Source: Chloroflexi bacterium HGW-Chloroflexi-9 (GTDB lineage: Bacteria > Chloroflexota > Dehalococcoidia > UBA2979). From it: a stretch of 57,958 bases of DNA. The notes under the pieces are model-generated. The model saw nothing but the letters and a program-made list of their open reading frames with translations. It did no database searches and was not told the origin of the DNA. Where the stretch lies: positions 1 through 57,958 of the forward strand of contig PHBR01000001.1 of the NCBI GenBank assembly GCA_002840675.1. The letters are read 5' to 3'. Both the position numbers and the translations under genes were made by a program. Shown here piece after piece: positions 16,455 to 24,860 of the stretch (positions are counted from its first letter, which is position 1; every line of letters begins with the position of its first letter).

Positions 16455-18134
16455 GTGGAACACGACCTGTTGATCGAGTTCACCGCGCTGCTAGTGCTGG
16501 CTGCGGCTGCGGGCGCCCTCGGCACGCTGCTCCGGCAGCCGTTGATCGTCTCGTTCCTCGCGGTCGGTATCGCCGCCGGCCCGGCGGGTTTCGACCTGCT
16601 CAGCGAGAACGACGCATGGGAACTGCTCTCAACCGTCGGCATCGCCCTCCTGCTATTCGTGGTTGGCCTGCGGCTCGACACGGACGAGATCCGGGCGACC
16701 GGTCTCGTCGCGCTGATCACGGGCCTCGGGCAGGTTCTGTTCACCTCGGTGGTGGGGTTCGGGCTCACGCTCCTGCTGGGCTTCGGCGTGACGCCGGCGA
16801 TCTACGTGGCGATCGCGCTCACGTTCTCCAGCACGATCATCATCGTGAAACTGCTGTCCGATAAGCGTGAGATCGACTCGTTGCACGGGCGTATCGCCGT
16901 CGGGTTCCTGATCGTGCAGGACATCGTGGTCGTCCTCGTGATGATCGGCATCTCCGCCTTCGGCACGGGGGGCAACGCCGACCCCGTGCGTGAGGCGCTG
17001 GAGATCACCGCGAAGGGGCTCGCCTTTGTGGGCGGCATCTTCTTCGCGATGCGGTTCCTGATCCCGGTCGTGTTCCGGACGCTCGGCCGCTCGCCCGAAC
17101 TGCTCGTCCTCGGCGCCATCGCGTGGGCGATGATGCTGGCGGTCGGCGGCGAGGAACTCGGGTTCAGCCGCGAGGTCGGCGCGTTCCTCGCCGGCGTGTC
17201 ACTGGCCTCCACGCCGTTCCGCGACGCGCTGGGCGGGCGGCTGATGAGCCTGCGCGACTTCCTGCTGGTGTTCTTCTTCGTGGTGCTGGGGGCCGGCCTC
17301 GATCTCTCGCTCCTCGGGGAGCAGGTCGTGCCGGCGCTGGTGCTGTCCGTGTTCGTGCTGATCGGCAACCCGCTGATCGTGATGATCATCATGGGGGTGA
17401 TGGGCTACCGGAAGCGCACCAGCTTCCTGTCCGGCCTGGCGGTCGCGCAGATCAGCGAGTTCTCGCTGATCCTCGGTGCGCTCGGCGTGTCGGTCGGGCA
17501 CATCGAGCAGGACACGCTGGGCCTGATCACGCTCGTCGGGATCATCACGATCACGCTCTCGACCTACCTGATCATCTACTCCCACCAGCTCTACGACCGC
17601 ATCCAGCACCTGCTCTCCATCTTCGAGCGTCGCATCCCGTTCGCTGAGGAATCCACGCAGGTCGCCGACGTACGCATCGACTTCGTCGTGATCGGCCTCG
17701 GCCGCTTCGGTGGCGCGATCACGCAGCAGTTGCTGGACCAGGGCTATCGCGTCGAGGGGATCGACTTCGACCCGGAGGTCGTCCGCACCTGGTCGAAACG
17801 CGGCCTGGCGGCGTATTACGGTGACGTCGATGACCCGGAGATGGGCTCGATGATCCCGACACACGCACACTGGGTTGTCTCCACGCTCCCGCAGCCGGAC
17901 CTGGGCATGCACCTGCTCCACACGCTCCACGGCCGAGGCTTCGGCGGTCGCGTCGCCCTGACCGCGCACAACATGACGGCGGCGCAGACCCTCTACCACG
18001 CGGGGGCGAACCTGGTGCTGCTGCCGTTCCTGGACGCGGCCACGCAGGTGGTCACGTACCTCACCCACCCGGAGACGCAGCACCCGGCGCTTCCCAACCT
18101 TCCAGACAGCGACGACGCCTCGCTGGAGGGCTAA
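16455..18134 (+). CDS. cation:proton antiporter (CPA2/Kef-type) with C-terminal RCK/TrkA-N domain
   Basis: About 12 TM helices followed by the Rossmann motif VVIGLGRFGGAITQQL. Confidence 0.85.
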   Translation: MEHDLLIEFTALLVLAAAAGALGTLLRQPLIVSFLAVGIAAGPAGFDLLSENDAWELLSTVGIALLLFVVGLRLDTDEIRATGLVALITGLGQVLFTSVVGFGLTLLLGFGVTPAIYVAIALTFSSTIIIVKLLSDKREIDSLHGRIAVGFLIVQDIVVVLVMIGISAFGTGGNADPVREALEITAKGLAFVGGIFFAMRFLIPVVFRTLGRSPELLVLGAIAWAMMLAVGGEELGFSREVGAFLAGVSLASTPFRDALGGRLMSLRDFLLVFFFVVLGAGLDLSLLGEQVVPALVLSVFVLIGNPLIVMIIMGVMGYRKRTSFLSGLAVAQISEFSLILGALGVSVGHIEQDTLGLITLVGIITITLSTYLIIYSHQLYDRIQHLLSIFERRIPFAEESTQVADVRIDFVVIGLGRFGGAITQQLLDQGYRVEGIDFDPEVVRTWSKRGLAAYYGDVDDPEMGSMIPTHAHWVVSTLPQPDLGMHLLHTLHGRGFGGRVALTAHNMTAAQTLYHAGANLVLLPFLDAATQVVTYLTHPETQHPALPNLPDSDDASLEG

Positions 18135-18167
18135 CCGCCTCGCGCGCTACGATCAGGGCGCATCGCT

Positions 18168-18252
18168 GCCGGGGTGGCGAAATGGCAGACGCAGCGCACT
18201 CAAAATGCGCCGGGTAACTCCCGTGCGGGTTCGAGTCCCGCCCCCGGTACCA
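18168..18252 (+). tRNA. tRNA-Leu (anticodon CAA), long variable arm, CCA encoded
   Basis: Acceptor GCCGGGG/CCCCGGT, anticodon loop CTCAAAA, long extra arm, T-loop TTCGAGT. Confidence 0.9.
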
Positions 18253-18296
18253 GCCGACCACCGCGCCCGCCGGCGCCGCCCCACCGAGGTGCCCGC

Positions 18297-18677
18297 ATGA
18301 CCACCGACGGCGACACGGAGTTCGGCGGCTGGCGCGCCTGTGACGCCTGCGGTGAGGCCATCGCCTCCCCTGATGAGGCCGCACTCACCGTCCCCCCCGA
18401 ATTGATCGAGGAGCGCCGCGCAGGCATCGCCGAGCGTGCGCGCGCCCTCGCGGCCGGCGAGGAGGCCGCGCACGTCTCCACCGGGCTGATCCCGTGGGAC
18501 TGGGGCCACCGCGCCTGCTTCCCGCCGCGGGACGAGGCGTACTTCGTGGAGGGCGCACGCATCGCGACGATGCCGGGCATGCTGGCGCAGACGCTGGCGC
18601 TGATGGACCGCGAGTGGTTCCTGGAGACGGCGTGGGAGGACGCGGTGCGGCGCTTCTACCGCATCCCCTTCGAGTAG
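18297..18677 (+). CDS. hypothetical protein
   Basis: Start at an internal ATG (MTTDGDTEFGGWRACDACGEAI), because the tracked ORF start overlaps tRNA-Leu. No recognised domain. Confidence 0.45.
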   Translation: MTTDGDTEFGGWRACDACGEAIASPDEAALTVPPELIEERRAGIAERARALAAGEEAAHVSTGLIPWDWGHRACFPPRDEAYFVEGARIATMPGMLAQTLALMDREWFLETAWEDAVRRFYRIPFE

Positions 18678-18692
18678 CGCACCCCTCGCGGG

Positions 18693-19310
18693 CTACGGCT
18701 TGCCGATGCCCGCGCCCCCGGCGATGTTTGTGTAGCCGGAGATGAAGTTCTCCACCCCGTGCACCTCCGGGTCGAACGACTGCCGCTCCACGGTGCCGAG
18801 GTCGTTGCACAGCACGTGCAGCGACACGGAAGGCGTATCAGACACCGTCACCACCTGGTGGATGTCCTCGTCCGGGTGCTTGAGCCAGGTCAACTCGCCG
18901 AGGCGGATCGGGTCGGCGGAGAGCAGCTCCAGTTCCGCGTAGCCCTCGCGGTCGCCGCGGTCACGTCGGACATACTTCCGCTCCACCTGTGCGCCCTGCA
19001 CCAGGCCGACCCAGCCGTCCGTGAGGTGGTTGTGGACGCGCGTCATGGAGCCGGCGGGAACCACCATCGAGAAGATGCAGAGGTCCGGGTCCTGCGAGCG
19101 GTAGACGGCCCAGGAGGCCGTGGTGTCCGGGACGGGCTGCCGGAACGCCTCCGTGATCCAGGAGGGGTCGTACAGGAGCGCCTCGGTCGGCGCCTTGAGC
19201 GCGTCGAGCAGGCCCGACTTGCCACGCTCGCGGGCAACGATGTTGCGGAAGTCCTCGACGAACCGGCGCAGTACCGGCTCCACGGGCTCGATGTAGTAGG
19301 CGTCCGACAC
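18693..19310 (-). CDS. cupin-fold protein, cysteine dioxygenase type I-like
   Basis: 205 aa with cupin-like His-containing strands (TRVHNHLTDGWVGLV...HQV). Confidence 0.5.
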   Translation of the reverse strand: MSDAYYIEPVEPVLRRFVEDFRNIVARERGKSGLLDALKAPTEALLYDPSWITEAFRQPVPDTTASWAVYRSQDPDLCIFSMVVPAGSMTRVHNHLTDGWVGLVQGAQVERKYVRRDRGDREGYAELELLSADPIRLGELTWLKHPDEDIHQVVTVSDTPSVSLHVLCNDLGTVERQSFDPEVHGVENFISGYTNIAGGAGIGKP

Positions 19311-19401
19311 GATGAACCTCCGGGGCTGCGCGGGCGCGCTCCAGGGCGCGACCGGGCAAGGGTAGCGCGCGCATGGCAGGGTTGAGATGCTGAGGGCCCG
19401 C

Positions 19402-19475
19402 TGGCGGATGGTGTAGCGGTAGCACAGGGGACTTTGGATCCCTTAGCCCAGGTTCGAATCCTGGTCCGCCAGCCA
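19402..19475 (+). tRNA. tRNA-Gln (anticodon TTG), CCA encoded
   Basis: Acceptor TGGCGGA/TCCGCCA, anticodon loop CTTTGGA, T-loop TTCGAAT. Confidence 0.88.
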
Positions 19476-19526
19476 GTGACACTCTTGCCCGAGGCGGGCG
19501 GAGGCGTCACACTTCTGAGGTTCCGT

Positions 19527-19601
19527 TCCCCGATAGCTCAACGGTAGAGCAAACGACTGTTAATCGTTAGGTTCGTGGTTCGAATCCACGTCGGGGAGCC
19601 A
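19527..19601 (+). tRNA. tRNA-Asn (anticodon GTT), CCA encoded
   Basis: Acceptor TCCCCGA/TCGGGGA, anticodon loop CTGTTAA, T-loop TTCGAAT. Its 3' 42 nt are overlapped by the recombinase ORF on the opposite strand. Confidence 0.9.
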
Positions 19602-21185
19602 ACCCAATCGCCCAATCCGTCGCTCACCACCTGGGCCATCTGGCGAAGGCACTCCGGCATAGATCTCCAGCGTGATCTGCCGCTCTCCTACCTCGACACT
19701 CCGCAGCAGCAGCTTGAACAGCTCCTTGCGTTCGTGCGGGCGGAGATGCTCGTAGACCTCATCCACTCGCCGCAGAGCCTCACAGACCGTCGCTGACGTC
19801 GCCGTCGCGGCCTCGATCTCGGTGATCTGCCGGTCCAGGTCGGCGATGCCGCTGTTGAGGTCGTCACGACGTGTGGCAAGCGCCTCGATGCGGTCCTCTA
19901 CGAACTCCCGACCCACGGGCACCGCTGACCACTCGGTCAGCATCCGGTCCGCGTCGGCGGCGACCTTCGGGAGCTGCTTCACGAGCGCCTCGCGCTGCTT
20001 CCGCAGCTTCGGCAGTTCGCGGGACAACCGCCGGTTCGTCTCGGCGGTCAGCGCCTCCACCGTTGCCGGGTCGGCGGCAAGCGTGCGGAGGCGGTCGAGC
20101 ACCACCCCTTCGAGCCGATCCGCCGGCAGGCGCATCCCGCAGCGGTTGCGGCAGACGTAGTAGAAGTAGTCCTTGCCCTGCCGTCCCGTGCCGGAGCGCC
20201 CCTGCATCGTCCCGCCACATCGGCCGCAGCGTGTGAGTCCCCCACTTAGCACATAGACGTGGCTGACCTTCGTAGCCGCATTATGTCCAGTCCTCGCATT
20301 CGCAGACATGAGTGTCTGGACGCGTTCGAAGAGTTCGGTATCGATGATCCCCGGCCAGACGGCGTCCACCAACATGGGGCCATCGGGCCCCTGCGCCTCA
20401 CGCTTCCCGATGTACGCGACGTTCTTGAGCATCTGCTGGACGGTGGAGAACGTGAACTCGCCACCCGGGTGCTCCCTCCCCCGCCGTGACGTGAACGACT
20501 TTCCCCGGTACCCGGCCCGGTTCAAGTGCTCCATTGCCTCCTTTATCGAGCCGGCCTCCAGGTACGCCTCGTAGAGGAATGCGACGCCCTGCGCCTCGGC
20601 CTCGTTCGGGATCAGATAGCCCTTGCGATCCGGGTCGAGGTCGAAGCCGAAGAGCCGTCCGCCGTTCCAGAGGCCGCGCTCGGTGCGAGCGATTACGGCG
20701 TCGCGGGTGCGCTCTGATGTCTGCTCGCGCTCGAACTGCGCCAGCGCCATCAGGATGGTCATAATCAGCCGTCCATGCGGCGTCGTGGTGTCGAACTGCT
20801 CCTTGAGCGAGCAGAACTCGACCCCGTGCTCATCGAGCACTTCCAGCAGGTCGAGGAAGTCGCGCAGGCTCCGGCAGAGGCGGCTGAGTGCGGTGCAGAC
20901 GATCGTGTTGACCCGCCCCGACTCGATGTCTTCGAACAGCCGTTGGAACTCCGGGCTGCGTACGGAGTCCTTCCCCGAAACGCCCCGCAGCTCGTAGACC
21001 GCGGCTTCCTCCCACGGCTCGCCGATGGTGTCGCGCTTGTACGCGACCTGCTGGCGGAGCCGTTGGAGCTGGGTGACGAGGCTGCCCTCGGGGTTGGACG
21101 CCTGGATGTCCGTCGAGACGCGGACGACGAGGCCCACGCGCCGCACGTCTTCGCGCTGCTGACGCGCCACCTTCGCGGCTACCAC
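19560..21185 (-). CDS. large serine recombinase (integrase)
   Basis: N-terminal resolvase catalytic domain (VGLVVRVSTDIQ). Recombinase domain. Zinc-ribbon CGRCGG...YYVCRNRCG. Coiled-coil C-terminus. The stop codon lies in the tRNA-Asn anticodon loop. Confidence 0.9.
   Translation of the reverse strand: MVAAKVARQQREDVRRVGLVVRVSTDIQASNPEGSLVTQLQRLRQQVAYKRDTIGEPWEEAAVYELRGVSGKDSVRSPEFQRLFEDIESGRVNTIVCTALSRLCRSLRDFLDLLEVLDEHGVEFCSLKEQFDTTTPHGRLIMTILMALAQFEREQTSERTRDAVIARTERGLWNGGRLFGFDLDPDRKGYLIPNEAEAQGVAFLYEAYLEAGSIKEAMEHLNRAGYRGKSFTSRRGREHPGGEFTFSTVQQMLKNVAYIGKREAQGPDGPMLVDAVWPGIIDTELFERVQTLMSANARTGHNAATKVSHVYVLSGGLTRCGRCGGTMQGRSGTGRQGKDYFYYVCRNRCGMRLPADRLEGVVLDRLRTLAADPATVEALTAETNRRLSRELPKLRKQREALVKQLPKVAADADRMLTEWSAVPVGREFVEDRIEALATRRDDLNSGIADLDRQITEIEAATATSATVCEALRRVDEVYEHLRPHERKELFKLLLRSVEVGERQITLEIYAGVPSPDGPGGERRIGRLGWLPDVDSNHEPND
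19584..19601 (+). other. putative attL chromosomal half-site plus CCA core
   Basis: ATCCACGTCGGGGA-G-CCA at the tRNA-Asn 3' end. An inverted near-copy occurs at 23553-23566. Confidence 0.45.
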
Positions 21186-21370
21186 CGGGGCTGATCCGAA
21201 TCCATGTCGTGATGCACCGACATGTCGCGCCCGAAGTCAACGGTGGTGCGCGCCCTGAGCCAGCGCTCGATCCCGGTCGCAAGCAGCGCCTGTAGCTGCT
21301 GAGCGCGCTCGTCGCCCGAGGGATCGTCGACGAGTCGGACGGTGATCTTGGGCTGAGTGGGTTCGGCCAT
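21179..21370 (-). CDS. hypothetical small protein (63 aa), co-oriented with and overlapping the recombinase start
   Basis: 7-nt overlap with the recombinase start. The ATG lies 4 nt from the left inverted repeat. No recognised domain; possibly a directionality or regulatory factor. Confidence 0.45.
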   Translation of the reverse strand: MAEPTQPKITVRLVDDPSGDERAQQLQALLATGIERWLRARTTVDFGRDMSVHHDMDSDQPRW

Positions 21371-21374
21371 GCCT

Positions 21375-21409
21375 ACCCATACGCAGGTCCGCTGCGATCT
21401 GTCGGATCA
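21375..21409. repeat. left 35-bp inverted repeat (IR-L) flanking the sigma-like gene
   Basis: ACCCATACGCAGG-tccgctgc-GATCTGTCGGATCA. Both arms are identical to the reverse complement of 22068-22102; only the central 8 nt differ. Confidence 0.85.
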
Positions 21410-21488
21410 CCGACGCGTCGCGACCTCCGGCGACCTCCGGGGGATCTCCGCCATCTGACCGGAGGTCGAAGACCGATAACTGGAGTGG

Positions 21489-22070
21489 GTGCAATTTTAC
21501 GCGCCCACCCCATCCGATGGCTTTGCGCCCTGGGAACTGGACACCGCGACAGCGGCCGTCCGGAGCTACCTCCGCGCTTCCCGGCGTCGTCCCGACCCAG
21601 ACGTCGAGAAAGGCCTAATCCAGGAGTGCCTGCTCCAGTGGTGGATCAAACGTGACCGGTACGACTCCGCCCGAGGGGCGAACCGCCGGACCTTCATGAA
21701 CCGGGTCTGTGAGCGCCACCTCCGCAGCCTCGCCCGTGCGGAGCGCGCGCTGAAGAGAGGCGGCGGCAAGCAGACGCTTTCGCTCGACAGGCCGTTGGGC
21801 GAGGACGGTGACTCACTGGCTGAGCTGCTCTCGGACGGCGATCCACGTCCGGATGAACTCGCCGAGCATGACGACCTCCTGGCGCGGCTCGCGCGTGTCC
21901 GCGAACGACTACTGGGGCGCGAACGACGTGTCTTCGAGGCGCTCGCCGACGATCGCCCGCGGGCGAGGCTTGCCCGTGATCTGGGCATCCACCGCAGCAC
22001 GCTCTACGCCGACATCGAGCGCATCCGGGAGGTCGCTCGCGACGAGGGGCTCGAAGACTTCCTCCGCTGA
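21489..22070 (+). CDS. sigma-70 family (ECF-like) / HTH regulatory protein
   Basis: 193 aa. The central region resembles sigma region 2. The C-terminal RLARDLGIHRSTLYADIERIRE resembles a region-4 HTH. GTG start. The stop TGA is the first 3 nt of IR-R. Confidence 0.6.
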   Translation: MQFYAPTPSDGFAPWELDTATAAVRSYLRASRRRPDPDVEKGLIQECLLQWWIKRDRYDSARGANRRTFMNRVCERHLRSLARAERALKRGGGKQTLSLDRPLGEDGDSLAELLSDGDPRPDELAEHDDLLARLARVRERLLGRERRVFEALADDRPRARLARDLGIHRSTLYADIERIREVARDEGLEDFLR

Positions 22071-22102
22071 TCCGACAGATCCGATCCGTCCTGCGTATGG
22101 GT
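22068..22102. repeat. right 35-bp inverted repeat (IR-R) flanking the sigma-like gene
   Basis: TGATCCGACAGATC-cgatccgt-CCTGCGTATGGGT. Inverted copy of IR-L (13-nt and 14-nt arms identical). Confidence 0.85.
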
Positions 22103-22106
22103 GCTC

Positions 22107-22388
22107 ATGGACACTCAAACGCTTCGCTTCATCTTTCCACCCGGAGCTGACCCGGAGGTGGTCGAGGACGACTTCGGCCTCGCCCTCTTCGCGGTCAGCT
22201 GTATCTACGGACGCCCGGGCGTCCGCCTTGCCGCCCGTTACCTCGTCAGCCCGGATGGGCGCCGCTGCGTCGCCTCGGTTGCGGGTACGGCGGGCGAGGC
22301 GGTGCTGCGCATCTTCACCGGGCTCTGCGCCTCCCGGCTCGGTGAGGACGGGTTCCGCATTGAGCGCCTCGGCGGTGCAGCATGCTGA
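22107..22388 (+). CDS. hypothetical protein (93 aa)
   Basis: The ATG lies 4 nt after IR-R, mirroring the ORF at 21179..21370. Its end overlaps the Prim-Pol start (ATGCTGA). Confidence 0.45.
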   Translation: MDTQTLRFIFPPGADPEVVEDDFGLALFAVSCIYGRPGVRLAARYLVSPDGRRCVASVAGTAGEAVLRIFTGLCASRLGEDGFRIERLGGAAC

Positions 22389-23161
22389 GCCCCGACGCCC
22401 ACAGCCTCGGGGACGCGGCGGTCGAACTCGCGCTCGCGGGCTGGTCGGTCTTCCCGTGCCACCCCACCGGGCCGCGCGCCAAGTCGCCGATCTCCGCGCT
22501 CGTGCCGCACGGCCACCTGAACGCCACCCGCGACCCGGAGGTCATCCAGCGGTGGTGGCGTGAATGCCCCAACGCCATGATCGGCGGCGCTGTCCCGGCG
22601 TCGTTCATCGTGATCGACATCGACCCGCGGAACGGGGGCAGCCTCGATGTGCTCGAGGCCCTCGTCGGTGCGCTGACCGAGACGCTCACCGTCTGGAGCG
22701 GTCGTGAGGACCGCGGCCGCCACTTCTACTACCTGCGCCCGGGTGGAGCGTTCACGTCGACCCGTCTGCCCGATGGCATCGACCTCAAAGTGCACGGCTA
22801 CTGCATCCTGCCGCCGAGCATCCATCCGGCGACGGGCCGCCCATACCGCTGGGAACTGCGCGAGCCCGCCCCGCTTCCCGGCAGCCTCCTCAGCCTCCTG
22901 CGCCCGCTCCCATCGCCTCCGCGTGTGACCTCAGGCCTCGGGAGCGTCAGCGCTGATGCCCTCGTGCGCTTCGTCGCGGGACTGCAGCCCGGCGAGCGGA
23001 ACCGAGGCACCTACTGGGCCGCGTGCCGCGCCGCGGACGACGGCGTGCTCGATGGCCTCGCAGCCGACCTCGTCGCTGCCGCCATGCAGACCGGCCTGCC
23101 GGAGCGCGAGGCCATTCGCATCGTCCAGTCCGCGCGGCGCAGTGCGGGGATCCGCTCATGA
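22382..23161 (+). CDS. bifunctional DNA primase/polymerase (Prim-Pol) N-terminal domain protein
   Basis: AGWSVFPCHP...IIDIDPRNGG (read as FIVIDIDPRNGG)...GRHFYY...DLKVHGYCILPPSIHPATGRPYRW matches the Prim-Pol domain pattern of plasmids and integrative elements. Confidence 0.85.
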   Translation: MLSPDAHSLGDAAVELALAGWSVFPCHPTGPRAKSPISALVPHGHLNATRDPEVIQRWWRECPNAMIGGAVPASFIVIDIDPRNGGSLDVLEALVGALTETLTVWSGREDRGRHFYYLRPGGAFTSTRLPDGIDLKVHGYCILPPSIHPATGRPYRWELREPAPLPGSLLSLLRPLPSPPRVTSGLGSVSADALVRFVAGLQPGERNRGTYWAACRAADDGVLDGLAADLVAAAMQTGLPEREAIRIVQSARRSAGIRS

Positions 23162-23304
23162 CCACCGTGCCCACCGTCCCGCCCGTCTCTGACCAGCCGC
23201 ACGACCGCTGCTCGGAGGATGTCACCCCCTGGTCTGCAGCATCGTCTCGCTTCATACCGCCTCCACTTCCTTCGTTCACTCGGAACCTACTGCGGTACCT
23301 GTGA
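23158..23304 (+). CDS. possible small ORF (48 aa) coupled to the Prim-Pol stop
   Basis: The ATG overlaps the Prim-Pol TGA (ATGA). No recognisable domain. Confidence 0.25.
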   Translation: MTTVPTVPPVSDQPHDRCSEDVTPWSAASSRFIPPPLPSFTRNLLRYL

Positions 23305-23549
23305 CGCTAGGCGCGGGCGCAGACCCACCCGAGTGGCGTTTGACCGGACGATTAAAGGACTAAGGTCCTGAGACCGGTCCGTCGCGATCTCGGACGGGAG
23401 ATCGTCCCTTGAGTGCGGCTGATAGGCGCGCGGCAGCGCGTGACGGCGGTCTCGTTCGCCACCGTGATCATGCCGCCGGCCCGCTCAGACCCGCCGTGTG
23501 CGGAGGAGGCGTAGCGTGGCTACCCGCACACCCGAGATAGCCCGATGGA

Positions 23550-23566
23550 CCATCCCCGAAGTGGAT
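23550..23566 (+). other. putative attR CCA core plus chromosomal half-site
   Basis: CCA-TCCCCGAAGTGGAT. The reverse complement ATCCACTTCGGGGA matches 19584-19597 at 13 of 14 positions. Confidence 0.45.
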
Positions 23567-23589
23567 GCAGCTGGACTCGTAACGGGGTG

Positions 23590-23782
23590 TGGCGGTCGCG
23601 GCCAGGCGTTCGTTCATGAGGAACGCCGCGAGCAGTTGCTCAGCAGCGCGCCGACCGCCGGGAAGGGATCGTTGGCCTGGATCGCCGGATCAGGGAGATC
23701 GAGATGACCGGAGCCCGGTCTACGAGCACCTGAAGCCGCACGAGCGCAAGGAGTTGTTCAGACTGCTCCTGCGGAGCGTCTG
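23590..23782 (+). pseudogene. frameshifted C-terminal remnant of a paralogous large serine recombinase
   Basis: In two frames it reads GQAFVHEERREQLL / GIVGLDRRIREIEMT / VYEHLKPHERKELFRLLLRSV. This parallels GREFVEDRIEAL / SGIADLDRQITEIEAAT / VYEHLRPHERKELFKLLLRSV of the intact gene. 23718-23780 matches the complement of 19695-19757 at about 52 of 63 nt. Confidence 0.65.
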
Positions 23783-23847
23783 GGACGGGTTCCTGCCGGT
23801 GCGCCAGCGTGACGTCGGCCTCTGCAGGTTTCGACAGCGCTGCTCGG

Positions 23848-24405
23848 TCAGCCGCTGTACGGCCAGGGGATGTCCACGGAGGTTAGCGGACGGTCGCTCG
23901 TCGCCACCCGGCCATCCAGGACGTGGCCGACCACAAGGGTGTGGTCACCGACATCGACGAACTGCTCCGCCTCGCAGTCGAGCCACATCAGTGCCCCGTC
24001 GAGGACCGGGCACCCGCGCGTGGTGAGCGTGTGGTCGACAGCGTCGAGCTTCTCGTACGTGCTCGATACCAGCGGCTGACCCCGCCCCTTGATCTTGGCG
24101 GCACGGTGCGGCTGCACGAAGTGTTGCGCCAGCGCCATCCCTGCGCCGCTCGCGTGGGCAAGGAGGTTCACGGTGAACGCGTTGTTCTGACGGATGCTCG
24201 CCAGGCTGTACGAGTCGTTCTCGAACGACACCGCGACCCGGTGCGGCTGGAAGGCCACCTGCATCACCCAGTCCGCGATCATCCCGTTGGGTTCGCCCCC
24301 GCGGGTGGTGCCCACGATGTAGACCCCGTACGGCATCTCCTCCACCGCGTCGGCGATCGAGCCATGCTCGGCACGCAATGCGCTGTCGGTGTTCTGGCTG
24401 ACCAT
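23848..24405 (-). CDS. flavin reductase-like FMN-binding protein
   Basis: GVYIVGTTRGGEPNGMIADWVMQVAFQPHRVAVSF is typical of the HpaC/flavin reductase domain family. Confidence 0.8.
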   Translation of the reverse strand: MVSQNTDSALRAEHGSIADAVEEMPYGVYIVGTTRGGEPNGMIADWVMQVAFQPHRVAVSFENDSYSLASIRQNNAFTVNLLAHASGAGMALAQHFVQPHRAAKIKGRGQPLVSSTYEKLDAVDHTLTTRGCPVLDGALMWLDCEAEQFVDVGDHTLVVGHVLDGRVATSDRPLTSVDIPWPYSG

Positions 24406-24860
24406 TCCTTGCTCCCTTCCATGTGGATTTCCATGCGGCGTCCAACCTCGCCGGTCCGTGTCCGCCTGTGGCCGTCACGCCCAAGAGGACATTCGCGACT
24501 TCAGTATCCGGGGCGCAGTGCGGTCGAGGCAGGGCACAAGGACCCCCAGCGCGGGACCAAACGTCCCTTCTGCGAAACACCCGCGACCCCGCCGGATGTA
24601 GTCTGAGCGGTGATAGGACGACCATCGCAGCCGCCGCGCGCTGCTCCGACAGCCGCGGGCGGCGGCACATCTGTCGGCAGATCACCGATATCTAAGCCGT
24701 GACGGCAACGTCAGCGCTCCGACGCTACCCCTCAGGGGCCGGGGCAGACTCGATATACTCCTCACCTGGTCTCGATCATTGTCTCTACGAATAAGGACGG
24801 GCGGCTCGACTGTGTCAGCCGCGAGAAGAGGCCGACACGTCCGCGGAGACGAGGAGCGTC

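Follow-up and report, generated by a model that had tools for sequence, protein, structure and literature searches.

Outward-facing inverted repeats around a sigma-like gene in a Chloroflexi integrative element are probably two copies of one sigma-dependent promoter

What is the role of a pair of 35-bp inverted repeats that bracket a sigma-like gene in an uncultured Chloroflexi bacterium? We analyzed a 57,958-bp stretch of DNA (here, the window) from the metagenome-assembled genome (MAG) HGW-Chloroflexi-9, in which a truncated integrative element of ~4 kb is located at a tRNA-Asn gene. The element carries genes for a serine integrase (minus strand), a short protein that we call p63 (minus), a sigma-like protein of 193 amino acids (aa; plus), a second short protein, p93 (plus), and a Prim-Pol protein (plus), in that order. 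The repeats, IR-L and IR-R, lie on either side of the sigma-like gene (Table 1). A preliminary interpretation made from the letters of the window (the sequence-only reading) had proposed that they form an invertible or bidirectional control cassette. Our analysis favors bidirectional control: the repeats are probably two copies of one promoter of the extracytoplasmic function (ECF) type, directed outward from the element's own ECF-like sigma gene.

On the plus strand, the text of IR-L is ACCCATACGCAGG-TCCGCTGC-GATCTGTCGGATCA and that of IR-R is TGATCCGACAGATC-CGATCCGT-CCTGCGTATGGGT. After reverse complementation of IR-L, both repeats take the form TGATCCGACAGATC-N8-CCTGCGTATGGGT, with identical arms of 14 and 13 nucleotides (nt), and they differ only in the 8-nt spacer, which in this sense is GCAGCGGA in IR-L and CGATCCGT in IR-R. 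When we searched the 57,958 bp for the arm pattern, allowing up to three mismatches, the only two sites found were IR-L and IR-R, both with zero mismatches. No match to the repeat pattern appeared in 100 dinucleotide-preserving shuffles of the window, and a repeat search also listed the IR-L/IR-R pair. The segment between the repeats (21410-22067) is 658 bp long, the TGA stop codon of the 193-aa open reading frame (ORF) constitutes the first triplet of IR-R, and each repeat is separated by 4 nt from an outward-facing ATG (CAT at 21368-21370 for the minus strand; ATG at 22107 for the plus strand). The sequence-only reading had described this geometry as well as the identical arms, the differing spacers, and the lack of a common dinucleotide at matching spacer positions; on re-reading the sequence, we found its coordinates exact and all these points correct. 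The 35-mers show no dyad symmetry (4 of 35 and 2 of 35 positions are self-complementary), and their similarity to the integrase's tRNA-Asn attachment region is not above chance.

We gathered 33 loci by means of the sigma protein and, independently, by means of p93. In ~25 related loci, the sigma gene has a bipartite core, CCGACA(G/C)-N15-CGTAT(G/A)GG, on either side, in every case directed outward. The core is conserved in loci with sigma identities down to roughly 30-37% and on contigs that range from ~68% GC to visibly AT-rich. It can be recognized without any motif model: raw sequence 3' of the sigma stop codon shows a conserved CCGACA(G/C), ~15 variable nt, and CGTAT(G/A)GG, and a mirror-image site is present on the other strand upstream of the sigma gene. 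A repeat search on three of the loci (L001-L003) recovered the conserved sites independently of the motif model, and MAFFT alignments of 12 right and 12 left flanks revealed CCGACA and CGTA as invariant blocks within diverged surrounding sequence. The spacing is fixed at CGACA-N16-CGTA. With the strict pattern [CG]GACA-N16-[CT]GTA[TC][AG], we obtained 30 unique matches in 217 kb (window plus loci), compared to 1.2 expected, and 29 of these 30 flank a sigma gene and point outward.

The relation of the sites to the downstream genes is also constrained. The window clade always has its ATG 7 nt past the -10 hexamer. Distant clades have a Shine-Dalgarno sequence (AGGAGG or GGGAG) that starts 7-9 nt past the hexamer (e.g., CGTATA-GGAGCCC-AGGAGG...ATG), and in most of their loci the start codon lies 12-23 nt past the hexamer. 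Given that either the ATG or the Shine-Dalgarno sequence sits at 7-9 nt, we predict that transcription starts ~7 nt after the -10 element. Judging from these sequences, transcripts of the window clade would start at the ATG or 1 nt before it and would be leaderless mRNAs, and those of some other lineages would have short leaders starting at the Shine-Dalgarno sequence. A published analysis predicts leaderless genes in genomes of Chloroflexi (PMC3160421).

Within a single element, the sites vary together. The sequence CGTACAGGG is found at both promoters of L006 and CTGTAGGTATAGG at all three promoters of L022; a -35 element of CGGGC(A/T) is present on both sides in L020 and L021, and CGACAGTTC on both sides in the L003 lineage. 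Because variant -10 and -35 elements change together within one element, the sites appear to track an element-specific reader. The two copies in L027 and L028 share only CCGACA..TC and CGTAT.GGT; the long identical arms are specific to the window lineage. In L015 (452-1126), ~650 bp containing an opposite-strand ORF (up to 234 aa) lie between the sigma stop codon and the right-hand site, which stays in front of p93. This insertion indicates that the right-hand site goes with the 5' end of the gene downstream of it and is not a boundary of the sigma cassette.

Individual loci show further variation around the sites. The right-hand promoter of L022 (5447-5570) is present in two tandem copies before p93, and L019 (685-760) has several -35-like CGACA/CAACAC repeats before a single complete promoter. 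In one distant clade, a perfect hairpin, GGAACCC-N5-GGGTTCC, directly follows the -10 element of the left-hand site on the minus strand (L011 265-290, L024 690-712, L025 1160-1185) and would open the predicted transcript from that site; this hairpin may be a 5' stabilizing stem-loop or an operator. In the window, the -35 arm is rich in GATC, with three sites in IR-R (22069-22088) and two in IR-L (21396-21408). Control through Dam methylation of GATC seems unlikely, as the GATC sites of the -35 arm are only partly kept in relatives and are not conserved in the L003 lineage.

Like a sigma-dependent promoter, each site consists of two short elements with fixed spacing and orientation, separated by a freely varying spacer and located upstream of a gene. 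The -10 CGTA(T/G) and the N16 spacing match ECF promoter architecture, in which spacers are 14-17 bp; Bacillus subtilis sigma-W, for comparison, recognizes a -35 TGAAAC and a -10 CGTA (PMC5758882). As in sigma-W promoters, a rigid 16-nt gap leads from the pentamer to CGTA, and the -10 element is CGTA(T/A) (PMC5758882). Under the promoter interpretation, the conserved arms would comprise the -35 and -10 recognition elements with a few flanking bases, and the variable 8 nt would be the middle of the promoter spacer. Once made, the sigma factor would direct host core RNA polymerase to the left-hand promoter (P_L) and the right-hand promoter (P_R) together. Leftward transcription from P_L would drive p63 and the serine integrase, which form the integration/excision module, and rightward transcription from P_R would drive p93, Prim-Pol, and downstream genes, which form the replication module. 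We infer that the element's sigma factor, rather than one of the host, reads both sites and that excision and replication would thereby be coordinated.

Several lines of evidence, which are weak but consistent where they come from family models, place the enclosed gene in the sigma-70 family. The 193-aa protein scores above the cut-off for Pfam Sigma70_ECF (residues 69-185; 22.0 bits, cut-off 21.1) and below the cut-offs for Pfam Sigma70_r2 (residues 43-83; 22 bits, cut-off 24) and TIGR02937 (32.2 bits, cut-off 42.9). It also matches the PHROG 'RNA polymerase sigma factor' (1.3e-9), and a profile of 12 homologues, searched against the PDB, matches regions 3.2-4 of SigA, HrdB, and RpoS structures (best E = 2.7e-6). 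The AlphaFold2 (AF2) model, with a predicted local distance difference test score (pLDDT) of 76.6, has two helical domains connected by a disordered linker. When this model was compared with known structures using Foldseek, the top matches listed were all sigma factors, starting with L and H, two ECF sigma factors of Mycobacterium tuberculosis, in initiation complexes. As in ECF (group 4) sigma factors such as sigma-W, the protein is small, within the typical range of about 170-220 aa, and contains sigma2 and sigma4 with no sigma1.1 or full sigma3. It differs from them in that its gene is part of a small integrative element and lies between its two known targets. Its GTG start at 21489 is preceded by a conserved GGAG-N3-GTG arrangement, and the N-terminus is kept in homologues according to both protein and upstream DNA alignments; the 193-aa reading is therefore supported, and the public annotation (P0001, 124 aa) appears to be truncated at the N-terminus. 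The family is rare, with only 12 clusters in a 90%-identity clustering of ~5.8 billion non-redundant sequences.

A number of observations weigh against the promoter interpretation. The -35 core, CCGACA, lacks the canonical 'AAC' of ECF promoters (xGAAC). Two hallmarks of ECF systems are missing: none of the loci has a plus-strand copy of the motif upstream of its sigma gene, indicating that autoregulation of the classical ECF kind is absent, and there is no recognizable anti-sigma factor, p93 having a ferredoxin-like fold. The sigma assignment draws on weak scores against hidden Markov models (with TIGR02937 below its cut-off) and on fold similarity with low template modeling scores (TM-scores, ~0.3), which possibly reflect a flexible two-domain sigma architecture; flexible linkage of the two domains is a plausible reason for such values. 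Moreover, the count of strict-pattern matches is partly circular, given that these loci had also served to build the pattern; the raw downstream sequences, the repeat search on L001-L003, and the MAFFT flank alignments are not circular. Finally, a host ECF sigma factor or a DNA-binding protein other than a sigma factor could read the sites instead.

The second of these possibilities would make the sites operators or activator sites for p63, p93, or a 102-aa helix-turn-helix (HTH) protein, with the operons transcribed from some other promoter. It draws on the 13-14 nt arms of the window clade, which are longer than minimal promoter elements, and on the presence of the extra HTH gene in intact relatives. 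The L027 copies, however, share only the short -35 and -10 cores. The sites, which are bipartite and asymmetric, lack dyad symmetry, keep a strictly fixed orientation and spacing with respect to the gene downstream, and include an ECF-like -10 CGTA, and no alternative promoter is detectable in 19400-24000. We consider operators or activator sites improbable, and the fallback offered by the sequence-only reading, paired control sites, was right in spirit, in that the sites form a conserved outward-facing pair.

If a host ECF sigma factor read the promoters, the element's sigma-like protein would do something else. The motif, however, follows the sigma gene across very different GC contents, both in Chloroflexi loci and on unassigned metagenome contigs; its variants are not uniform but change with the element; and the 58-kb host window contains only two well-spaced copies, both at the sigma gene. 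These observations make a host reader quite unlikely, even though -10 elements of the CGTA type are widespread in the ECF group and the element's sigma factor scores weakly against curated models.

The cassette could also be invertible, with the neighboring serine recombinase recombining IR-L and IR-R to flip the sigma gene and redirect read-through transcription. Serine-invertase switches such as Hin/hix and Gin/gix have dyad-symmetric sites with an identical central dinucleotide, and both orientations occur in populations. Our locus resembles them in having inverted repeats that flank a segment beside a serine recombinase gene, but it has none of these three properties, and the 35-mers are also unlike the tRNA-Asn attachment region. 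The gene order integrase (minus), p63 (minus), sigma (plus), p93 (plus) is found in every locus with an informative neighbor. The sequence-only reading had suggested looking for the flipped state in related genomes; it occurs in none of the ~25 distinct loci and independent assemblies, among them another assembly of the window's own element (L026) and, for one variant, six contigs that come from five or more datasets (L003, L029-L033). In addition, the long arm identity is lineage-specific and relatives keep only the CCGACA and CGTAT cores, P_R stays with p93 and not with the 3' end of the sigma gene in L015, and the domains of the recombinase are those of a large serine integrase, with the 3' end of its gene overlapping the tRNA target. 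Inversion is therefore very improbable; the bidirectional half of the original proposal agrees with the conserved outward-facing pair, and the invertible half is not supported.

An RNA leader or translational control element shared by both outward mRNAs, which the sequence-only reading had drawn from the identical sequence just upstream of the two start codons, is highly improbable, given that the predicted transcription start lies downstream of the repeats, at the ATG or beside it, that folding is no better than in shuffled sequences (z = -1.1 and -0.5), that there is no Rfam match, that the distance from motif to start codon varies in distant loci, where a Shine-Dalgarno sequence is inserted after the motif, and that conservation is confined to two short blocks around a freely varying spacer.

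Assuming that the sites are promoters for the element's sigma factor, how would the sigma gene itself be controlled? We detected no sigma-70-type promoter and no intrinsic terminator in 19400-24000; any transcript of the sigma gene would thus continue across P_R into the replication genes. Upstream of the gene, direct repeats of ACCTCCGG are present at 21423-21430 and 21433-21440, followed by a degenerate third copy, ATCTCCGCC, at ~21444-21452, and, in the window clade, an inverted copy, CCGGAGGTC, at 21459-21467. The family consensus of the direct repeats is (A)ACCTCCG(G/C), with starts 10-12 nt apart, within the 80-160 bp that separate the sigma start codon from P_L. Distant loci have AACCTCCGC repeats at 11-12 nt from start to start, and direct repeats upstream of the sigma gene are found in L006, L011-L014, L016, and L020-L025, including at ~28% sigma identity. 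The fold of this control region as RNA is not significant. The repeat region is likely an input site for a regulator of sigma expression and a candidate binding site, and the sigma gene would probably be controlled through the ACCTCCGG repeats rather than through a promoter of the same type as P_L and P_R. The direct repeats may be an operator, an activator site for the sigma gene, or iterons.

The p93 gene follows the sigma gene in every locus with readable downstream sequence, even at 27% sigma identity. Its product has no protein family match; the AF2 model (pLDDT 86.6) has a ferredoxin-like fold (beta-alpha-beta-beta-alpha-beta), and the Foldseek matches listed are generic ferredoxin-like folds, with none pointing to a specific function. 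We considered p93 as a known type of anti-sigma factor, and none of the structure matches listed is an anti-sigma factor. Of the loose ends of the analysis, the strict linkage between sigma and p93 is the most interesting.

The features of the element are collected in Table 1. The gene assignments of the sequence-only reading hold for the 541-aa recombinase, the 259-aa Prim-Pol protein, and the 193-aa sigma-like ORF with its weak Sigma70_r2 and Sigma70_ECF matches. The integrase also resembles XisF/CcrB in NCBIfam, at scores below their cut-offs, and the stop end of its gene overlaps the 3' 42 nt of the tRNA-Asn gene; this combination of a large-serine-integrase domain set and a gene overlapping the tRNA target is that of a tRNA-targeting integrative element. 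The p63 gene overlaps the integrase start by 7 nt. Its product has no match in Pfam, NCBIfam, PHROGs, or a PDB sequence search, and it is a candidate directionality factor or regulator.

Table 1. Features of the integrative element and its surroundings (window coordinates)
Feature	Coordinates	Strand	Evidence or detail
tRNA-Asn (GTT), integration target	19527..19601	+	ARAGORN; Rfam tRNA 71.6 bits
Large serine recombinase (integrase), 541 aa, second gene of leftward operon	19560..21185	-	Pfam Resolvase 2e-30, Recombinase 1e-11, Zn_ribbon_recom 8.5e-10
p63, 63 aa, first gene of leftward operon	21179..21370	-	Next to integrase in relatives
IR-L, probable promoter P_L	21375..21409	-	-35 core CCGACA 21405-21400; -10 hexamer CGTATG 21383-21378
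Putative control region 5' of sigma gene	21420..21468	+	Repeats conserved in family
ECF-like sigma-70-family factor, 193 aa, GTG start after GGAG	21489..22070	+	Pfam, PDB profile search, Foldseek
IR-R, probable promoter P_R	22068..22102	+	-35 core CCGACA 22072-22077; -10 hexamer CGTATG 22094-22099
p93, 93 aa	22107..22388	+	Comparative loci; AF2 model
Prim-Pol replication protein, 259 aa	22382..23161	+	Pfam Prim-Pol 1.4e-31; PHROG primase families
48-codon stump of 448-aa primase/helicase-like gene	23158..23304	+	Homology to L002 and L009 ends near 23205

In relatives whose element is intact (L002, L027-L031), Prim-Pol is followed by a 448-aa primase/helicase-like gene, whose product matches a PHROG primase, a 141-aa gene, and the 102-aa HTH gene. 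The latter two are absent from the window copy. Given that homology to the intact relatives stops near 23205, leaving 48 codons of the 448-aa gene, the window element is truncated on its right side. We found no repeat of the 3' part of tRNA-Asn to the right of the element that could represent attR, so the right boundary is not definable in the window copy. A search of viral contigs found no relative of the sigma protein and hence no evidence that the element is a phage.

L002, L009, and L029 have the same insertion context. The same chromosomal locus, marked by a Na+/H+ exchanger gene, a 204-aa gene, and tRNAs, holds the element family in several related genomes (window 16500-19300 compared with L002, L009, and L029). 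DNA identity is 77-82% within the element versus 71-74% in the host flanks, and one 108-bp stretch at a tRNA-Leu gene is 90% identical. That the element is at least as conserved as its host flanks gives a hint of prolonged vertical residence, as opposed to separate recent insertions. By the truncated end, at 23591-23780 and 24675-24716, another serine-integrase gene, a related one, has left inverted relics of its 3' end. Within them, 23717-23780 shows 95% identity to the L002 integrase and only 83% to the window's own integrase, which suggests the remains of another copy of the element or a past rearrangement.

An alternative sigma factor whose gene lies on a mobile element and which has its targets on the element itself is an already known type of system, and SigN (ZpdN) of the 84-kb B. 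subtilis plasmid pBS32 is comparable. As proposed here, the SigN regulon is located on the mobile element that encodes it, and SigN induction triggers replication of pBS32 (PMC6751061). SigN is LexA-repressed and positively autoregulated and has many targets, whereas our element is ~4-7 kb long, with two divergent targets and no sign of autoregulation. Conjugative and mobilizable transposons of Clostridioides difficile (e.g., Tn6105 and Tn6103) likewise have predicted sigma genes next to large serine recombinase genes (PMC3158075). The same study asks whether these sigma-like proteins bind promoters in the element or in the recipient genome and reports none (PMC3158075); their sequence context is unrelated to that of our locus, and the hosts and element types are different. 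Among Chloroflexi, the ssrA-specific islands of Dehalococcoides encode a CcrB-like serine integrase of ~540 aa (DsiB), and the 3' end of its gene overlaps the target RNA gene, as in our element (PMC3146451). These islands differ in that they target ssrA rather than tRNA-Asn and carry a module with DsiA, RecF-like, ParB, and Mom homologues (PMC3146451). The main text of that paper contains neither 'sigma' nor 'primase', and paired promoters are not reported for the islands.

Measured against these systems, a sigma gene bracketed by its two target promoters is a tidy variant and not a new principle. We know of no earlier description of the symmetric layout itself, in which a sigma gene lies between its two target promoters and the outputs are predicted to be leaderless. 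As a tentative extension, which we regard as rather doubtful, the sigma factor, p93, and the pair of outward promoters may together make up a minimal switch that is self-contained, in which an orphan sigma factor of an undescribed ECF-like group, with p93 as a new anti-sigma or co-sigma factor, would license excision and replication of Prim-Pol elements of ~7 kb in Dehalococcoidia and related uncultured bacteria. The analysis removes a false lead, in that the repeats are very probably not a new invertible switch. Compact and probably orthogonal sigma/promoter pairs with leaderless outputs would be of practical interest as genetic parts. Overall, the locus offers a concrete, testable sigma/promoter pair for a rare and uncharacterized sigma family in uncultured Chloroflexi, where the regulation of mobile elements is almost unknown, and it would explain how the recombination and replication modules of a very small integrative element may be activated together by one regulator.

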